A stretch of DNA of 49,999 nt from Candidatus Adlerbacteria bacterium RIFOXYC1_FULL_48_26 (GTDB lineage: Bacteria > Patescibacteriota > Minisyncoccia > Phycocordibacterales > SBAW01), in the NCBI GenBank assembly GCA_001773575.1, contig MEXB01000007.1:1-49999 (forward strand). The letters run 5' to 3'. The notes beneath the pieces were generated by a model. The model searched no databases. It was not told the DNA's origin and saw nothing but the letters and a program-made list of their open reading frames with translations. A program made the translations under genes and the position numbers. Of the stretch, positions 12,683 to 45,666 are shown piece by piece (within the stretch, counting starts at the first letter, position 1; every line of letters begins with the position of its first letter).

Positions 12683-12711
12683 TTGACTTATCTAAAATAA
12701 TGTCATATTGT
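12683..12711 (+). promoter_or_regulatory. sigma70-type promoter
   Basis: TTGACT-N17-TATTGT; AAGGA SD before ATG 12767. Confidence 0.6.
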
Positions 12712-12766
12712 GTGCAACGGCTGTACTCCTTGCCTTTAGCCGGGCATCACACGAAAAGGACCACTC

Positions 12767-13447
12767 ATGACGTGTTTAAATGCGACCGCTTCGACGGCCG
12801 CCGCGTCGCGCGCTCCCGTGCCGGTTACAAAACGGCAGCTTCTGTCTGAAGGCAGTATCGTGCGAATCGCTGTCCCCTTGGAAGCTCGCAAGGGCCAGAT
12901 CGAGGACAATGGTCGGGTCATCCACTACCTCCAGTTCAAGTACTCTGTGTACGGCGGTCTCATCAACTGCTTCGTGCACGCAGAGACTGCCGAGGAACTC
13001 GAGAAGTACTACGGCGACACCATCACGGCGGAAGCCAGTGTCTGGCAGAAGACTTTAGAAGATGAGCGCACGTTCATCTACGTGGATCTTCTGCAGACGG
13101 AACTTCCTACGACGCACGACATCTTCTTCCTTCGAGATTACGATCCGAAGACGTTGGACGCCATTCCGTACGATGTGGACGACTTCGTGATGTTTCCAAC
13201 ACCAGCGCCGTTGGAAGGCGCTGTTGTCCTCGTACCGCTCACCGCGACGAAGTTCGACACGCCGGCGCCGGCGCAAACCACTCCGGCAATGACATCGACC
13301 GGCGACACCGGCCTCGATCGCCTGCTGAATGACGGATGGAAGATCGAAGCCTCCGACGAGAAGACCGTCAGCCTCTACAAAGGCGAGGGCGCGAGTCGCA
13401 AGACCATGACGCACCGCAAGCCTCAGAAGAAGAGCAAGAAGCGCTAG
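12767..13447 (+). CDS. hypothetical protein (orphan cassette), basic C-terminal tail
   Basis: 226-aa ORF with GC-rich codons and its own promoter, SD and terminator. Confidence 0.8.
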   Translation: MTCLNATASTAAASRAPVPVTKRQLLSEGSIVRIAVPLEARKGQIEDNGRVIHYLQFKYSVYGGLINCFVHAETAEELEKYYGDTITAEASVWQKTLEDERTFIYVDLLQTELPTTHDIFFLRDYDPKTLDAIPYDVDDFVMFPTPAPLEGAVVLVPLTATKFDTPAPAQTTPAMTSTGDTGLDRLLNDGWKIEASDEKTVSLYKGEGASRKTMTHRKPQKKSKKR

Positions 13448-13461
13448 ACACCGTTCGTACC

Positions 13462-13494
13462 CCGCCCCCTAGGAAACTAGTGGGGCGGTTTTTT
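13462..13494 (+). terminator. intrinsic terminator
   Basis: CCGCCCC-ctag-gaaa-ctag-t-GGGGCGG followed by T6. Confidence 0.85.
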
Positions 13495-13506
13495 ATAAAC
13501 CAGTCA

Positions 13507-13535
13507 TTGACTTTTACACATTTTCATGATAAAGT
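13507..13535 (+). promoter_or_regulatory. sigma70-type promoter
   Basis: TTGACT-N17-TAAAGT with TG extension. Confidence 0.65.
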
Positions 13536-13588
13536 TGTAAGTGGCTGTTCCGGGTGTTAGCCACACTCATCTCAACGAGGAATCCGAT

Positions 13589-42943: not shown

Positions 42944-42947
42944 GCAC

Positions 42948-43940
42948 ATGCGCACAAGACGAAAAAGGCAACCAAAATTGCTATATGTTTTGGCGGGGAT
43001 TATCGGTGGACTGATCATGTTGTTTTTTGCATTCCCAAGTATTGTTGTGTGGGAACAAAAAAATCTAGGTATCCAATCCCCCTTTCCGGTAAGTGTCGAC
43101 CCTATCAAAAAAACTATAAAGCCGAACGCTTCAGCCGACCTGTTGTTTGCTGACCCGACTTCAACCGAGGCGGCTGTCTTTAATGCCAAAGGAATATTTG
43201 CAGCTGTTGCGCGCGTTATCGCTGACACTCCCCTGTACCAATTTGCCGCAATAGAAGCTGGCATACCAAATATTCTTACGATCAACCCTGGCCTCCGAAA
43301 AGAACAGGTTGCTGCCCTTATTGGTAAAAGGCTTGGCTGGGACGCGAATAAGCAAAAACAATTTACCCAACTGCCACCTGTTTCAACCGTACAGCTAGAA
43401 GAAGGGACTATTGCTCCAGGCGATTATTCAATTGCAGCAGGAGACTCAATCCTTGCAGTACAAGAACAGGTTCAACAAAGATTCGAAGATGAAGTGCTTT
43501 CGCGCTACACACCAGCAGTGCAAAAAATTGTGCCGCTTGAACAAGGGCTAACTATCGCATCCATTATTGAACGCGAAACGAGCGACCCACAGGAAATGCG
43601 CATTATATCCGGCGTCATATGGAACCGTTTATTTGCCGATATGAAATTGCAAATGGATTCTACACTGCAGTATGCAAAAGCTACAGGCAAAGGTCCTTGG
43701 TGGCCACAAGTCGTGCCGCGCGACAAATATATCAAGTCTCCCTACAACACCTATCAAAACGAAGGTCTGCCACCGGGACCAATTTCTGCCCCAAGTACCG
43801 CGGCTGTACTAGCGGCCCTCAACCCTGTAAAAACCTCGTGCCTATACTATTTCCATGACGACGATGGGGAAATCTATTGCTCAGACACTTACGAACAGCA
43901 TGTCGGTTCGCTGAAAAAACTCTACGGCCAAGGGCGGTAA
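42948..43940 (+). CDS. mltG: endolytic transglycosylase MltG
   Basis: IASIIERE, NRL..MKLQMD and SPYNTY..GLPPGPI. Confidence 0.92.
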   Translation: MRTRRKRQPKLLYVLAGIIGGLIMLFFAFPSIVVWEQKNLGIQSPFPVSVDPIKKTIKPNASADLLFADPTSTEAAVFNAKGIFAAVARVIADTPLYQFAAIEAGIPNILTINPGLRKEQVAALIGKRLGWDANKQKQFTQLPPVSTVQLEEGTIAPGDYSIAAGDSILAVQEQVQQRFEDEVLSRYTPAVQKIVPLEQGLTIASIIERETSDPQEMRIISGVIWNRLFADMKLQMDSTLQYAKATGKGPWWPQVVPRDKYIKSPYNTYQNEGLPPGPISAPSTAAVLAALNPVKTSCLYYFHDDDGEIYCSDTYEQHVGSLKKLYGQGR

Positions 43941-43955
43941 TGTATACTTCATAGT

Positions 43956-44174
43956 ATGGAATGGATCATCGTGGGTGTTATAGTCCTGATCGTCTTTCTT
44001 CTCTTTTTAGGGCTATATTTCCGTGCTTCAGGCGCGGTTACCATAGCTGCAGAAGAGCAGGAAGAAATCGAGAAGGAGTCGCCCGAAGAACTTGAAAAGG
44101 AAGTGGAGCGAGAGGAAGAAAATGCTGAGTCCTCCAAAGCGGCGGACGACGAATTTCATTCAGCGCGCGGGTAG
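43956..44174 (+). CDS. small single-TM acidic protein
   Basis: TATACT-N7-ATG; N-terminal TM; Glu-rich tail. Confidence 0.65.
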   Translation: MEWIIVGVIVLIVFLLFLGLYFRASGAVTIAAEEQEEIEKESPEELEKEVEREEENAESSKAADDEFHSARG

Positions 44175-44195
44175 TCTTTGGTATACTGTTCCGAT

Positions 44196-45239
44196 ATGCA
44201 ATATCGGAAACTACCAGGCACTGACATGGAAGTGTCAGCAATTTGCCTTGGCACCATGAACTGGGGCCAGCAAAACACAGAAGAAGATGCACACGCACAA
44301 CTCGACTACGCAACAGCACACGGCGTAAATTTTATAGACACTGCGGAGATCTACCCTATTCCGCCTGACCGAACGAAACAAGGAACAACTGAAACATATC
44401 TTGGCTCCTGGCTTAAGAAAAGCGGGAAAAGAAAAGATCTTATCATTGCAAGCAAGGCTTCGTGCATGCTTCAGAAAAATTCTATGGGCACCCGTACGGC
44501 TGTCGGACTTACCCGCGCAGATATACGTGAAGCTATAGAAGGCTCACTCTTGCGCCTAGGAACCGACTACCTTGATCTCTACCAGATGCATGGGCCTGAC
44601 CGCATTACGAACGTGTGGGGCCGGTACGGAGTCGAAGACATTGATACGTCGCAAGACGGTGCGGCGATTGAAGAAACGCTCAGTGCGCTCGCCGAACTTG
44701 TTACAGAAGGAAAGGTGCGCGCAATTGGCGTGTCCAACGAAACACCCTGGGGCATCATGCAATATTTGAATGTGGCGCGCGAAAAAGGCTTCCCAAGAAT
44801 TTCTACTATTCAAAATCAATATTCCCTACTGAGCCGAAAGTTTGAAATTGGCCTGTCGGAAATGTGCCTACGTGAACATATCGGACTACTTGCCTATTCA
44901 GCACTTTCTATGGGGTCACTGACAGGTAAATATCTTGGCGGCGCTCGCCCACCAGCTGCACGCCTGACACTTACAGACCGCAACGCACACTACAACCCGC
45001 CACAATCTCAAGTTGCTATACAACGCTACGTAGATGTTGCCAAAAAGCACGGACTCGACCCAGCTGCTATGGCTATTGCCTTCGCTACTTCTCGCTCATT
45101 CACAACAAGCACAATCATTGGCGCCACCACGCTGGAACAGCTTGCTGTAGACATAGAAGCAGGAAATATAACTCTGTCTCCAGAAGTTATGAGCGATATC
45201 GCAGACATCCACCGCGAAATGCCCAACACCCACGCATAG
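44196..45239 (+). CDS. NADP(H)-dependent aldo-keto reductase (Tas-like)
   Basis: LGTMNWGQQN, FIDTAEIY, LDLYQMH, GVSNET and IQNQYSLL. Confidence 0.93.
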   Translation: MQYRKLPGTDMEVSAICLGTMNWGQQNTEEDAHAQLDYATAHGVNFIDTAEIYPIPPDRTKQGTTETYLGSWLKKSGKRKDLIIASKASCMLQKNSMGTRTAVGLTRADIREAIEGSLLRLGTDYLDLYQMHGPDRITNVWGRYGVEDIDTSQDGAAIEETLSALAELVTEGKVRAIGVSNETPWGIMQYLNVAREKGFPRISTIQNQYSLLSRKFEIGLSEMCLREHIGLLAYSALSMGSLTGKYLGGARPPAARLTLTDRNAHYNPPQSQVAIQRYVDVAKKHGLDPAAMAIAFATSRSFTTSTIIGATTLEQLAVDIEAGNITLSPEVMSDIADIHREMPNTHA

Positions 45240-45297
45240 TGTTTGATTTTATTTGAGTCTGTCGTACTATTCCAACAGAAAGAAGCAGGAGGAACAG

Positions 45298-45666
45298 ATG
45301 GGGGTCAAGATCCCTGTTGTACACCACTCAATTCGAAACGTTCGTAAAGGCATTACCTTCGATTGGCTCTTGGAGGATAAAAGACTGGAAGCTAAGCGTA
45401 ATTACAACGATGCGGCAGGTCGACTACACGAATGGAAGCGGTTTTTCCCACATCAGCACGTAAACCAGAGCGCCTTTGCACGTAGGTGCGTGCACGAAAT
45501 GATCGGGGCTTTCACTCGTTGGTTGATATATAAGGGTGAAGAGATCGAAGGAGATCTCCATCTCACAAGACTCTACGAGATACTTAATGAAACGCCCCCA
45601 CGTTTTCCTCCCCAAAGCCCCGCTCGATACGCGGGGCTTTTTACTTTATTAAAAATAATCGTATAG
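45298..45666 (+). CDS. hypothetical protein (orphan cassette); ORF reads through its terminator
   Basis: TTGATT-N16-TACTAT promoter and AGGAGG SD. Confidence 0.55.
   Translation: MGVKIPVVHHSIRNVRKGITFDWLLEDKRLEAKRNYNDAAGRLHEWKRFFPHQHVNQSAFARRCVHEMIGAFTRWLIYKGEEIEGDLHLTRLYEILNETPPRFPPQSPARYAGLFTLLKIIV
45614..45642 (+). terminator. intrinsic terminator inside ORF 3' end
   Basis: AAAGCCCCGC-tcgatac-GCGGGGCTTT-TT. Confidence 0.7.

Follow-up and report, generated by a model that had tools for sequence, protein, structure and literature searches.

Single-gene units with Shine–Dalgarno motifs, promoters and terminators in an Adlerbacteria genome whose 16S rRNA lacks the anti-Shine–Dalgarno sequence

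Eleven cassettes and a genome-wide class of genes

We analyzed a stretch of 49,999 nucleotides (nt; hereafter, the window) on contig C7 of the genome of Candidatus Adlerbacteria bacterium RIFOXYC1_FULL_48_26 (hereafter, G000; 630 kb in 17 contigs, GC content 0.478). The nearest named relatives of G000 are metagenome-assembled genomes of Candidatus Adlerbacteria, a group of the candidate phyla radiation (CPR), and the metagenome runs containing the G000-type organism came from groundwater and soil. The window holds eleven short genes, called cassettes here and cited by the first position of their coding sequence, that stand singly or in short tandems with no mobility genes alongside (Table 1). 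An earlier note, made from the sequence alone, had described them in this way and had proposed that they form a distinct class with its own expression grammar, and both statements were borne out. Ten of the 11 cassettes have a raised GC content (0.53–0.63, compared with 0.46–0.49 for contigs) and a GC content at third codon positions (GC3) of 0.57–0.82, the exception being 45253-45666 (GC 0.47, GC3 0.51). A Shine–Dalgarno (SD) core of at least 4 nt lies at about −6 to −14 in 9 of the 11 cassettes (38525 has GGGGG only and 41549 none), and a −35 box of the form TTGAC[ATG] lies upstream of eight. By eye, a hairpin with a T-run was recognized at all 11; a scan flagged eight (26810, 29860, 38363, 38910, 39281, 39621, 41808 and 45614), a stricter terminator finder accepted six, and the terminators after 12767, 13589 and 27621 are, by eye, bulged or long-looped. 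The frame of each of the 11 was the best of six under a codon model trained on long open reading frames (ORFs).

These cassettes belong to a larger class. In G000, 686 genes were called with a greedy, non-overlapping caller based on codon log-odds (ORFs of at least 40 amino acids [aa]), which admits some false short ORFs, for example inside rRNA, and picks the longest non-overlapping start, so that counts of SD motifs are conservative. We defined class A as genes of at least 60 aa with GC3 of at least 0.6 and no match in the relative G004 (n = 58 of 686); GC3 is part of this definition and hence is not an independent result for class A. About one gene in ten falls into the class, and the same pattern was found in relatives. 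Two relatives were compared as whole genomes, namely, G004 (605 kb, GC 0.55) and G071 (764 kb, GC 0.51), the latter being the closest relative, whose typical proteins are 71–79% identical to those of G000; their cassette classes were defined by a terminator, an SD motif and the lack of a homologue, not by GC3.

The distribution of GC3 in G000 has a single mode at approximately 0.45 and a heavy right tail, with 82 genes above 0.6 that are short (median 101 aa vs 230 aa). Expression signals were concentrated in this tail. Strong terminators (137 in G000) follow 17 of the 465 genes with GC3 below 0.5 and 26 of the 52 with GC3 of at least 0.65; among unit-terminal genes, the corresponding proportions were 7% of 205 (low GC3) and 47% of 47 (high GC3). 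SD motifs of at least 4 nt were found at 15% of genes with GC3 of 0.5 or less (random background: 17%) and at 62% of those with GC3 above 0.65. This excess is not explained by composition, because internal in-frame starts of the same GC-rich genes, used as a control, reached only 26%, compared with 60% at the true starts. In class A, 60% of genes carry an SD motif and 55% a terminator, compared with 16% and 4% of the 550 typical genes (Fisher p = 1e-12 and 3e-23, respectively). Additionally, the promoter pattern TTGACN-N15-19-[TG]ANNNT was present within 150 nt upstream of 18 of the 58 class A genes vs 11 of 249 native unit-first genes, and the −10 box in class A lies a median of 43 nt before the start. 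Thus, in the comparison of SD and terminator frequencies that the earlier note had suggested, the class stands sharply above other unit-first and unit-terminal genes. Its statement that all cassettes lie on the + strand is correct for the window (11 of 11) but not for the genome, where 30 class A genes lie on the + strand and 28 on the − strand; 22 of the 58 are on the locally G-rich strand, compared with 340 of the 550 typical genes.

Judged from their sequences, the cassette terminators fit the definition of intrinsic (Rho-independent) terminators. The 137 hairpins differ in sequence and have only a TTTCTTTT-type tail in common. Genome-wide, the T-runs are interrupted in a common way (TTTCTTTT or TTCTTTT), and an A-rich shoulder on the 5' side (AAGGCC...GGCCTT) is frequent, an arrangement that would permit termination in both directions. 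A class-wide leader motif was absent: GCTG..TTAGC occurred in 1 of the 58 class A leaders. A leader hairpin of the form GGCTGT..TAGCC is common to cassettes 12767 (12719-12741) and 13589 (13543-13562), which are its only strict occurrences within class A, with two other strict matches in the genome (contigs C4 and C8). The copy before 13589 is conserved in G071, L145 and L146 and may be an mRNA-stabilizing or regulatory element. The ribosome-binding-site contexts of two adjacent cassettes are also near-identical (38998-39014, ACCAGGAGGAAATCATG, before 39012; 39401-39417, ACCAGGAGACAACGATG, before 39415).

Table 1. Cassettes and flanking features of the window (CDS, coding sequence; Nx, spacer of x nt between the −35 and −10 boxes)
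Feature	Coordinates	Strand	Gene or product	Signals and context
Cassette 1	12683-13497	+	CDS 12767-13447, 226 aa, GC3 0.74	Promoter TTGACT-N17-TATTGT at 12683-12711; SD AAGGA; bulged hairpin and T6 past stop
Cassette 2	13507-14675	+	CDS 13589-14599 (ORF from 13541), 336 aa, GC3 0.80	Promoter TTGACT-N17-(TG)TAAAGT at 13507-13535; conserved leader hairpin 13543-13562; SD GAGGA; terminator a long-loop hairpin and T-run, adjoining stop of M50 peptidase gene
Cassette 3	26235-26845	+	CDS 26333-26803, 156 aa, GC3 0.73	Promoter-like TTAACA-N16-TATTTT; SD GGAG; terminator 26810-26835, 11 pairs (8 GC)
Cassette 4	27560-27985	+	CDS 27621-27941, 106 aa, GC3 0.62; N-terminus signal-peptide-like	Promoter TTGACA-N16-TATTTT; SD GAGG; imperfect hairpin and T-run downstream
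Cassette 5 (csp)	29530-29893	+	CDS 29628-29831, CspA-family, GC3 0.82	Promoter TTGACA-N16-TAAATT; leader ~70 nt; SD AGGAG; terminator 29860-29883
Cassette 6	37620-38396	+	CDS 37685-38359, 224 aa, GC3 0.63	SD AAGGAGGT; terminator 38363-38386
Cassette 7	38423-38942	+	CDS 38525-38896, 123 aa, GC3 0.65; N-terminus lipoprotein-like	−35 TTGACT; terminator 38910-38932
Cassette 8	38953-39307	+	CDS 39012-39263 (ORF from 38964), 83 aa	−35 TTGACG; SD AGGAGG; hairpin 39281-39293, then T-run
Cassette 9	39349-39700	+	CDS 39415-39660, 81 aa, GC3 0.57	Promoter TTGACA-N17-GATAAT (11/12 matches); SD AGGAG; hairpins 39621-39636 and directly past stop
Cassette 10	41477-41843	+	CDS 41549-41803, 84 aa, membrane-like, GC3 0.75	Promoter-like TTGACA/TTGGCA sites; no SD; terminator 41808-41833, 11 pairs
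Cassette 11	45253-45700	+	CDS 45298-45666 (ORF from 45253), 122 aa, GC 0.47 (not raised)	SD AGGAGG; hairpins 45614-45640 (within 3' end) and past stop
Class II aminoacyl-tRNA synthetase (proS in the earlier note)	11347-12603	−	Pfam tRNA-synt_2b and HGTP_anticodon	Hot-spot flank
M50 peptidase (rseP in the earlier note)	14677-15828	−	Pfam Peptidase_M50	Other hot-spot flank
tRNA-Asn	21890-21962	+		Followed by variable region of ~8 kb (21996-29831) holding cassettes 3–5
Hybrid histidine kinase	35503-37581			Flank upstream of four-cassette tandem (cassettes 6–9)
OmpR-type regulator	40245-40919			Flank downstream of four-cassette tandem (cassettes 6–9)

Other neighbours of the window cassettes encode AcrB and an aldo-keto reductase. 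Between the four-cassette tandem and the response regulator lies an ORF of 99 aa (39661-39960) with a weak HisKA match (E = 2e-4) and a 44%-identical counterpart in G071; it may encode a small phosphotransfer protein or be a gene remnant.

Resident genes, 16S rRNA and codon usage

The remaining genes follow another pattern. The words enriched before the starts of 403 typical ATG genes were TATACT and ATAAT, with T/A/T peaks at −12/−11/−7; the −10 box is thus placed so that transcription would begin at the start codon, and the residents look leaderless. A leaderless signature marks 72 of the 249 unit-first genes of the native set, compared with 2 of the 58 class A genes, and the SD frequency of residents was at or below the background. 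The suggestion that residents lack SD motifs and are apparently leaderless was therefore sustained.

The scarcity of SD motifs among residents can be attributed to the loss of the anti-SD sequence, a cause visible in the rRNA. The 16S rRNA gene (G000:C1:31518-32981, minus strand) has a well-formed helix 45 followed, in the Rfam alignment, by the 3' tail GGAACAAUUCAAAU instead of GGAUCACCUCCUUU, and CCUCC occurs nowhere on its sense strand. The earlier note had asked whether CCUCC is retained; it is lost in G000, and the same tail stands in all 12 genomes of the genus with a readable 16S 3' end. All 21 genomes from other families of the order in which the 3' end could be read have a tail variant, GGAWYAWUUCAAWU (in one more genome, no 3' end was found). 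Such an order-wide distribution suggests that the loss is old, and the conservation of the replacement tail suggests a constraint of its own. Of the two elements of canonical SD initiation, a motif 5–12 nt upstream of the start is present in 9 of the 11 cassettes, whereas its complement in the 16S rRNA, as read from the gene, is absent. According to a previous study, only 48% of Parcubacteria 16S rRNA genes contain the CCTCCT motif, and SD helices are supposed not to form (Tsurumaki et al. 2022, RNA 28:1041, PMC9297842); anti-SD loss in part of the Parcubacteria has thus already been published there, and G000 and its order fit this pattern.

We considered two ways in which pairing might persist and rejected both. 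The first, an altered SD pairing with the new 16S tail, was not supported: the only words enriched before resident genes are TA-rich and −10-like, and no TTGAA-type k-mer is among them. The second was a retained anti-SD in a piece beyond the G000 16S rRNA gene that resembles a canonical 16S 3' end; however, the Rfam 16S model ends before this piece, which is absent in 11 relatives. This piece lies in a stretch present only in G000 (C1, ~31060-31280; ~330–410 nt downstream of the 16S rRNA gene) that reads ACAAGGTAGCCGTAG, ~80 nt and CTGGATCACCTCCCTT on the rRNA strand; its opposite strand reads AAGGGAGGTGATCC ... CCCCCTCCTCC, followed by a strong terminator (31248-31280), and has a weak Rfam match to the alphaproteobacterial small RNA ar14 (E = 0.079; 22 bits vs a cutoff of 58.8). 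A search for an anti-SD-bearing small RNA, based on intergenic CCUCC-type motifs within 160 nt upstream of terminators, returned 5, 8 and 2 candidates in G000, G071 and G004, respectively, with no common pattern. On contig C13 (~31580-31750), a C/T tract of ~170 nt with several CCTCC-like words and no called gene runs into a strong terminator (31726-31748).

Class A also differs from residents in codon usage. The difference is mainly at the third position (class A vs typical genes: GC1 0.578/0.563, GC2 0.439/0.399 and GC3 0.698/0.451), and strand skew, which the earlier note had named as a possible cause, does not account for the GC3 excess, because both G3 (0.31 vs 0.20) and C3 (0.38 vs 0.25) are raised. 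Translational selection of the ordinary kind is seen in the native, highly conserved genes, in which C-ending two-fold codons, CGC/CGT, GGT/GGC and CTC/CTT are preferred and CTG, CGG, AGG, GGG and CCC are avoided. When native genes of weak conservation are taken as the reference, class A shows an excess of CTG, CGG, AGG and CCC (log2 ratios of +1.57, +2.06, +1.39 and +1.40, respectively), and within GC-ending codons its trend runs against that of native conservation (r = −0.51). The relative synonymous codon usage of the cassette classes of G000, G071 and G004 was correlated at 0.83–0.91 (class A vs G071, 0.90; vs G004, 0.91), compared with 0.17 between class A and G000 natives. The GC3 of the class is above the baseline in G070 (0.29), G000 (0.45) and G004 (0.65) and below it in G018 (0.88). 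In G070, which belongs to another family and has a genomic GC content of 0.37, 31 of 420 genes had GC3 of at least 0.5, and SD motifs occurred in 27–71% of these by bin, compared with 9–11%. On the evidence of codon usage, the class A dialect is foreign to the recipient and common to G000, G071 and G004. The 12 high-GC3 genes of G000 that are conserved in G004 rarely carry the signals (SD, 8%; terminator, 8%); these include genes that, by eye from their translations, we take to encode L34, L28, S18, SmpB and an ATP synthase subunit.

Distribution, junctions and products

Class A genes are accessory. A tblastn match in G004 was found for 77% of typical G000 genes but only 11.5% (6 of 52) of those with GC3 above 0.65; restricting the comparison to genes of 60–250 aa gave 70% and 7.5%, respectively. 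Likewise, 78% of typical genes and 21% of SD-bearing GC-rich genes had a reciprocal best hit in G071. Eight of the 11 window cassettes are absent from G071: 26333 and 38525 were found in none of the 40 other genomes of the genus, 45298 had weak matches (26–29% identity) in 2 of the 40, and 27621, 39012, 39415 and 41549 are absent from both G004 and G071, the latter of which also lacks 26333. The synteny comparison proposed by the earlier note thus gave a divided answer, since the other three, 12767, 13589 and 37685, are syntenic in relatives.

Junctions in G004 are often clean, with flanking orthologues −26 to 124 bp apart where G000 has 450–1230 bp and one cassette (for example, 1229 vs 51 bp and 695 vs 3 bp). 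Compared with G071, 45 of the 58 class A genes lie in 38 runs flanked by orthologues, and in 30 of these runs the flanks are still close enough to be informative; 7 of these junctions are empty in G071, 20 hold other, non-orthologous genes (often with SD motif and terminator) and 3 could not be resolved. The surrounding chromosome is conserved, with positions 468-21862 of the window syntenic in six relatives. Between the synthetase, whose orthologues in relatives are 57–87% identical, and the M50 peptidase gene, the gap is 2073 bp in G000 and 729, 826, 2274, 2869 and 6375 bp in G004, G013, G017, G009 and G018, respectively. In G018 (GC 0.62), this junction holds a 6.3-kb insert with a GC content of 0.47 (G018:C1:563208-569524), which encodes a secreted-type protein of 1067 aa and four paralogous small membrane proteins of ~140 aa (MKGTGIFGWI...). 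These genomes belong to one GTDB genus whose GC content spans 0.48–0.62 (G000, 0.478; G017, 0.505; G071, 0.51; G013, 0.517; G009, 0.527; G004, 0.55; G018, 0.62) with conserved gene order. The region after tRNA-Asn (21996-29831) is mostly missing in G071, where 5–6 other genes with SD motifs and terminators stand. In G000, its three GC-rich cassettes are interleaved with redox and envelope accessory genes of ordinary GC3 (FAD oxidoreductase, PNPOx-like, TspO, BacA/UppP, alternative-oxidase-like, redoxin and peptidoglycan-binding).

Metagenome contigs allowed comparisons at shorter range. Runs X4, X5 and X7 contain the same strain as G000 (at least 99% identity to the window), and run X8 contains a relative of that strain (85–95% identity). 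No contig joint skipping an entire cassette was seen when contigs of these four runs were compared with the window. Contigs of X8 span 37499-37856 and 38952-39373; its cover is low or zero at 39340-40006, 41341-42007 and 45343-45999, contig holes that carry no inference. In X8, 242 nt inside gene 27621-27941 (window 27640-27883) are swapped for 245 unlike letters with both flanks aligning, and the interior of this gene is, as judged from this alignment, a hypervariable core.

Machinery dedicated to mobility was not apparent near the cassettes. No flanking direct repeats or target-site duplications were detected around seven cassette regions, the repeats found being terminator tails and ribosome-binding-site contexts, and no attC-like shared repeat was present among the cassette 3' hairpins, which are ordinary GC stems with T-runs. 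The only tyrosine recombinase in G000 is on contig C4, away from the cassettes. The region after tRNA-Asn contains no integrase, and no direct repeats were found at its three cassettes (the region borders were not searched). The absence of integrase, attC site and target-site duplication reported by the earlier note was thereby confirmed. G000 encodes ComEC, DprA and RecA. Links to phages or plasmids were also lacking: the 13589 protein had no tblastn match among plasmids; viral contigs contained no relative of the 13589-family alignment (A2), 12767 or 37685, although scans with single proteins detect close relatives only; and 10 cassettes had no matches in PHROGs, NCBIfam or PADLOC. In Pfam, none of the ten cassettes other than csp had a match above the cutoff.

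The origin of one cassette could be traced. The csp product (29628-29831) matches Pfam CSD (E = 1.1e-20; 73.7 bits vs a cutoff of 27), and its best protein matches are 67–80% identical. Of the best 120 hits, 11 carry an organism name, and every one of these is alphaproteobacterial (Stellaceae, Parvibaculum, Reyranella and unclassified; 72–77% identity), as are the csp genes that make up the 15 best-listed plasmid matches at the DNA level (72–77% identity), and the DNA alignments begin 1–13 nt before the ATG, within the SD motif and spacer. In contrast, CSD genes of the genus are only 31–51% identical to this csp; a native-type CSD gene (31–35%) occurs in 38 of 40 genomes, and G000 also retains one (C12:620-799). 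The csp cassette is, on this sequence comparison, of alphaproteobacterial type with its SD region included, and its origin is in SD-using cells.

Two further cassettes have relatives. The 12767 family comprises 173 cluster representatives. The structure model of its protein (predicted local distance difference test [pLDDT] 90.3) gave no Foldseek match at E ≤ 1e-3; residues 24–114 resemble S1, SSB and PriB chains with a VIA Z of only 3–5.1, and a small C-terminal domain gave a match at Z 3.8. Atlas searches returned only leads below the threshold, one of them for this protein. The N-terminal domain may be OB-fold-like. For 13589, 37 homologues were found, and all organism names given are CPR. 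Its model (pLDDT 89.7) had 49 Foldseek matches in the PDB at E ≤ 1e-3 (best E = 4e-6), the top ones being PggH, Rv2837c/NrnA, pAp phosphatase, GdpP and RecJ with a probability of ~1.0; the TM value was only ~0.3, owing to a different orientation of the two domains. The predicted structure is a two-domain DHH/DHHA1 phosphoesterase fold. The catalytic motif set of DHH proteins is DxD, D, DHH and D; the family alignment has the invariant residues H38, D42, D44, D87, D94-Q95-H96 and D132, with DQH replacing DHH. By sequence, there was no Pfam DHH match, only a weak ChrB_C match, and the family matched one PDB chain (E = 0.11). Based on these models, the 12767/13589 tandem may be a nucleic-acid- or nucleotide-processing pair. 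The earlier note had called nearly all cassettes orphans, which holds for eight, with no or almost no relatives (37685 has four homologues among 5.8 billion proteins), but not for csp, 12767 and 13589.

Weighing the readings

With moderate confidence, we favor the reading that class A is a horizontally exchanged pool of self-sufficient, moron-like single-gene transcription units. Each unit would consist of its own −35/−10 promoter, a leader of 30–60 nt with an SD motif, one short ORF and an intrinsic terminator, and units would be gained, lost and swapped horizontally at a limited number of intergenic hot spots in a chromosome that otherwise stays syntenic. The genes of the recipient chromosome itself are apparently leaderless or SD-less, and its 16S rRNA is without anti-SD. 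The GC-rich dialect and the canonical signals would belong to the exchanged pool and its donors, not to the recipient. Some units come from ordinary SD-using bacteria, as the alphaproteobacterial-type csp shows, and others would circulate among Adlerbacteria-like CPR. Because each unit brings its own promoter and terminator, it could be expressed wherever it is inserted, even antisense in a resident block, without read-through. Entry might occur by DNA uptake, followed by RecA-dependent recombination via conserved flanks, or else through illegitimate recombination; in neither case would a dedicated integrase take part. Translation in the recipient would be independent of SD:anti-SD pairing.

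Several observations, mostly on cassettes that appear to be long resident, weigh against this reading. Outside G000, eight genomes have a member of the 13589 family between the synthetase and M50 peptidase genes and on the strand opposite to them: G016, G005, G010, G015, G071, L145, L146 and L148, of which L148 seems to be the same record as G016, with identical flank sequence (in L147 the context is different). The 12767 family stands at this junction in five (G004, G013, G071, L145 and L146), as a tandem with 13589 in G000, G071, L145 and L146 and alone in G004 and G013, and 37685 has a positional orthologue in G071 (49% protein identity). Their signals are retained: in long-resident copies, the −35 box ATTGACTTT is invariant in 4 genomes; among positional orthologues, a 27-nt leader hairpin GGCTGTTCCYGGGTGYTAGCCACACTC is conserved with the AGG of the SD motif kept; the 37685 pair of G000 and G071 retains AGGAGG and a terminator; and orthologous terminators have changed stems with pairing kept. 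For ten G000–G071 orthologue pairs of SD-bearing GC-rich genes, the G071 member has an SD motif in 6 of 10 and a terminator in 8 of 10, compared with 13% and 6% for typical pairs. Similarly, GC3 is nearly the same in orthologous cassettes (G000/G071: 0.81/0.82, 0.68/0.70 and 0.74/0.69) although that of typical genes is 0.45 vs 0.59, and un-ameliorated relics should drift in GC3. The named relatives of 13589 are all CPR; no SD-using donor was identified for 10 of the 11 cassettes (taxon-named searches covered 3 proteins); and neither a transfer event nor a mobile vector nor a connection to phages was detected. The persistence of SD motif, promoter, terminator and dialect in positionally conserved copies is not yet explained by an exchanged pool.

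The same observations favor the strongest alternative, which we regard as possible but doubtful, that is, a native expression class kept by selection in which the SD-like motif acts without a canonical anti-SD. Its action might involve pairing with a different RNA, binding to a protein, or an effect on mRNA stability or regulation, and this would amount to a second initiation or regulatory mode for fast-evolving accessory proteins. In favor of this alternative, positional orthologues retain the grammar in genomes that have no anti-SD, and SD-like motifs are present in 9 of 9 distinct 13589-family loci, the leaders of which are otherwise unalignable outside one clade. Moreover, the anti-SD loss is old, being order-wide, but all of G000, G004, G071, G018 and the distant G070 still contain the class; orthologous cassettes have equal GC3 despite differing genome baselines; and the families of 13589 and 12767 seem restricted to CPR. 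Hence, the SD-like motif may work without an anti-SD. Conversely, no partner of the motif was found (no CCUCC in the 16S rRNA and no consistent anti-SD small RNA in three genomes), the codon dialect is opposite to the native optimum, most members are singletons with nothing orthologous to conserve, and csp is clearly external and came with its SD. The divergence of cassettes is also equivocal: identities within the 13589 family are 31–37%, compared with 51–70% for the M50 peptidase, and the two are uncorrelated (r = −0.01), which fits allele replacement from a pool via conserved flanks as well as saturation; if saturated, the cassette signals would be under selection in cells without anti-SD. 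We consider it rather unlikely that, throughout this anti-SD-less CPR order, selection keeps the SD-like leader motif together with the −35 box, 5' hairpin, dialect and terminator in a fast-evolving accessory class, with the motif acting via a partner other than 16S rRNA.

The other explanations fare much worse. A highly expressed native class, in which GC-ending codons are translationally optimal, had been suggested by the earlier note and is very improbable. It agrees with the weak rise of GC3 with conservation among conserved genes (Spearman's rho = 0.20), with the GC3 of 0.60–0.68 in some conserved genes (L34, L28 and S18, as judged by eye), and with the fact that a strong promoter, SD motif and terminator are typical of such genes. 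However, cassettes favor CTG, CGG, AGG and GGG, which native conserved genes avoid, conserved high-GC3 genes are without SD motifs and terminators, and the class falls below the baseline GC3 in G018. Genes formatted for the machinery of another cell, to be expressed in a host bacterium after DNA or RNA transfer, are no more credible. All three signal types are canonical while residents use none, the signals are conserved in orthologues, and class A is somewhat richer in N-terminal hydrophobic segments (26 of 58 vs 182 of 550 typical genes) and in Cys (2.9-fold), as this idea would have it; but no delivery system is linked, ordinary cytoplasmic members such as a cold-shock protein and a DHH phosphoesterase occur, and the simplest reader of the conserved −35 box is the RNA polymerase of the cell itself.

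A dedicated, integron-like or transposon-like capture system for single genes, the undescribed acquisition system of the earlier note, is less probable still. The dispersed single genes of similar architecture and the tandems of two and four recall one, and like integron cassettes they are small and mostly orphan. Integron cassettes, however, are promoterless, end in attC and lie beside intI/attI/Pc, whereas the cassettes here have their own promoters (−35/−10 sites seen upstream of 8 of 11) and neither an attC-like repeat nor an adjacent integrase; no recombination site is shared, flanking direct repeats are lacking, the sole tyrosine recombinase is on another contig, and the neighbours are housekeeping or signalling genes. 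Least probable of all is an artefact (assembly chimera or contamination, mis-called ORFs or strand skew) in this 17-contig metagenome assembly, given that contigs of three other runs match the window at 99% or more, the same architecture and junction recur in independently assembled relatives, the frames are the best of six with SD motifs at canonical spacing, and both G3 and C3 are raised. On the favored reading, the class is neither a new capture system nor a codon-optimized native class. Of the earlier interpretation, the distinct class is supported, the acquisition system and the highly expressed class are not, and the idea of genes formatted for the machinery of another cell holds, as regards origin, for csp.

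The exchanged-pool reading has partial counterparts among known systems. Phage morons are independent transcription units inserted between prophage genes, and the cassettes resemble them in being single genes with a sigma-70-type promoter and a factor-independent terminator of their own, a deviant composition, and presence or absence in a syntenic backbone. They differ in that they sit not in a prophage but among the housekeeping and signalling genes of a cellular chromosome, in that PHROGs gave no match for 10 cassettes and viral contigs none for 3 queries, and in that initiation follows another mode in the genes native to the recipient. Flexible genomic islets or replacement islands are exchanged by homologous recombination of conserved flanks; here, too, the same junction is occupied in different species by different genes, either non-homologous or highly divergent (20 of 30 vs G071; synthetase/M50 in 13 genomes), no integrase is present, and RecA, DprA and ComEC are present, but the cassettes are mostly single short genes marked by full canonical signals that the core genome lacks. 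A tRNA-associated island would apply only to the region 21996-29831, which adjoins a tRNA gene without an integrase. Classical detection of horizontal transfer relies on compositionally atypical recent transfers and their amelioration. Atypical codon usage, patchy distribution and donor-type signals (csp) are in line with it, whereas the class is GC-richer than G000 and GC-poorer than a GC-rich relative, with one dialect across recipients, and the dialect kept in some positionally conserved cassettes is not predicted by simple amelioration.

At the level of abstracts, we did not find this two-population pattern of genes in print, although supplements might list anti-SD status per lineage. The available part of Tsurumaki et al. 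(2022, PMC9297842) mentions neither a minority with SD motif, −35 box and terminator nor leaderless residents.

One genome thus holds two separable populations, approximately 90% of genes being leaderless or SD-less and approximately 10% carrying full canonical signals, which offers a natural experiment on the role of the Shine–Dalgarno motif where the ribosome cannot pair with it. Taken together, SD motif, −35 box and terminator mark the flexible or imported part of the genome in these uncultured bacteria from sequence alone and could improve gene calling and start-site prediction as well as help to trace donors or hosts; csp points to Alphaproteobacteria of the same groundwater. If the motif is functional, a question of translation initiation beyond the textbooks arises, and if it is indeed kept by selection and acts via another partner, the flexible genome would be tagged by a second mode of initiation, or of post-transcriptional control, that needs no anti-SD. 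The accessory pool of this reduced, symbiont-like genome is of considerable size and turns over fast, and it is retained at fixed hot spots although no integrases accompany it.

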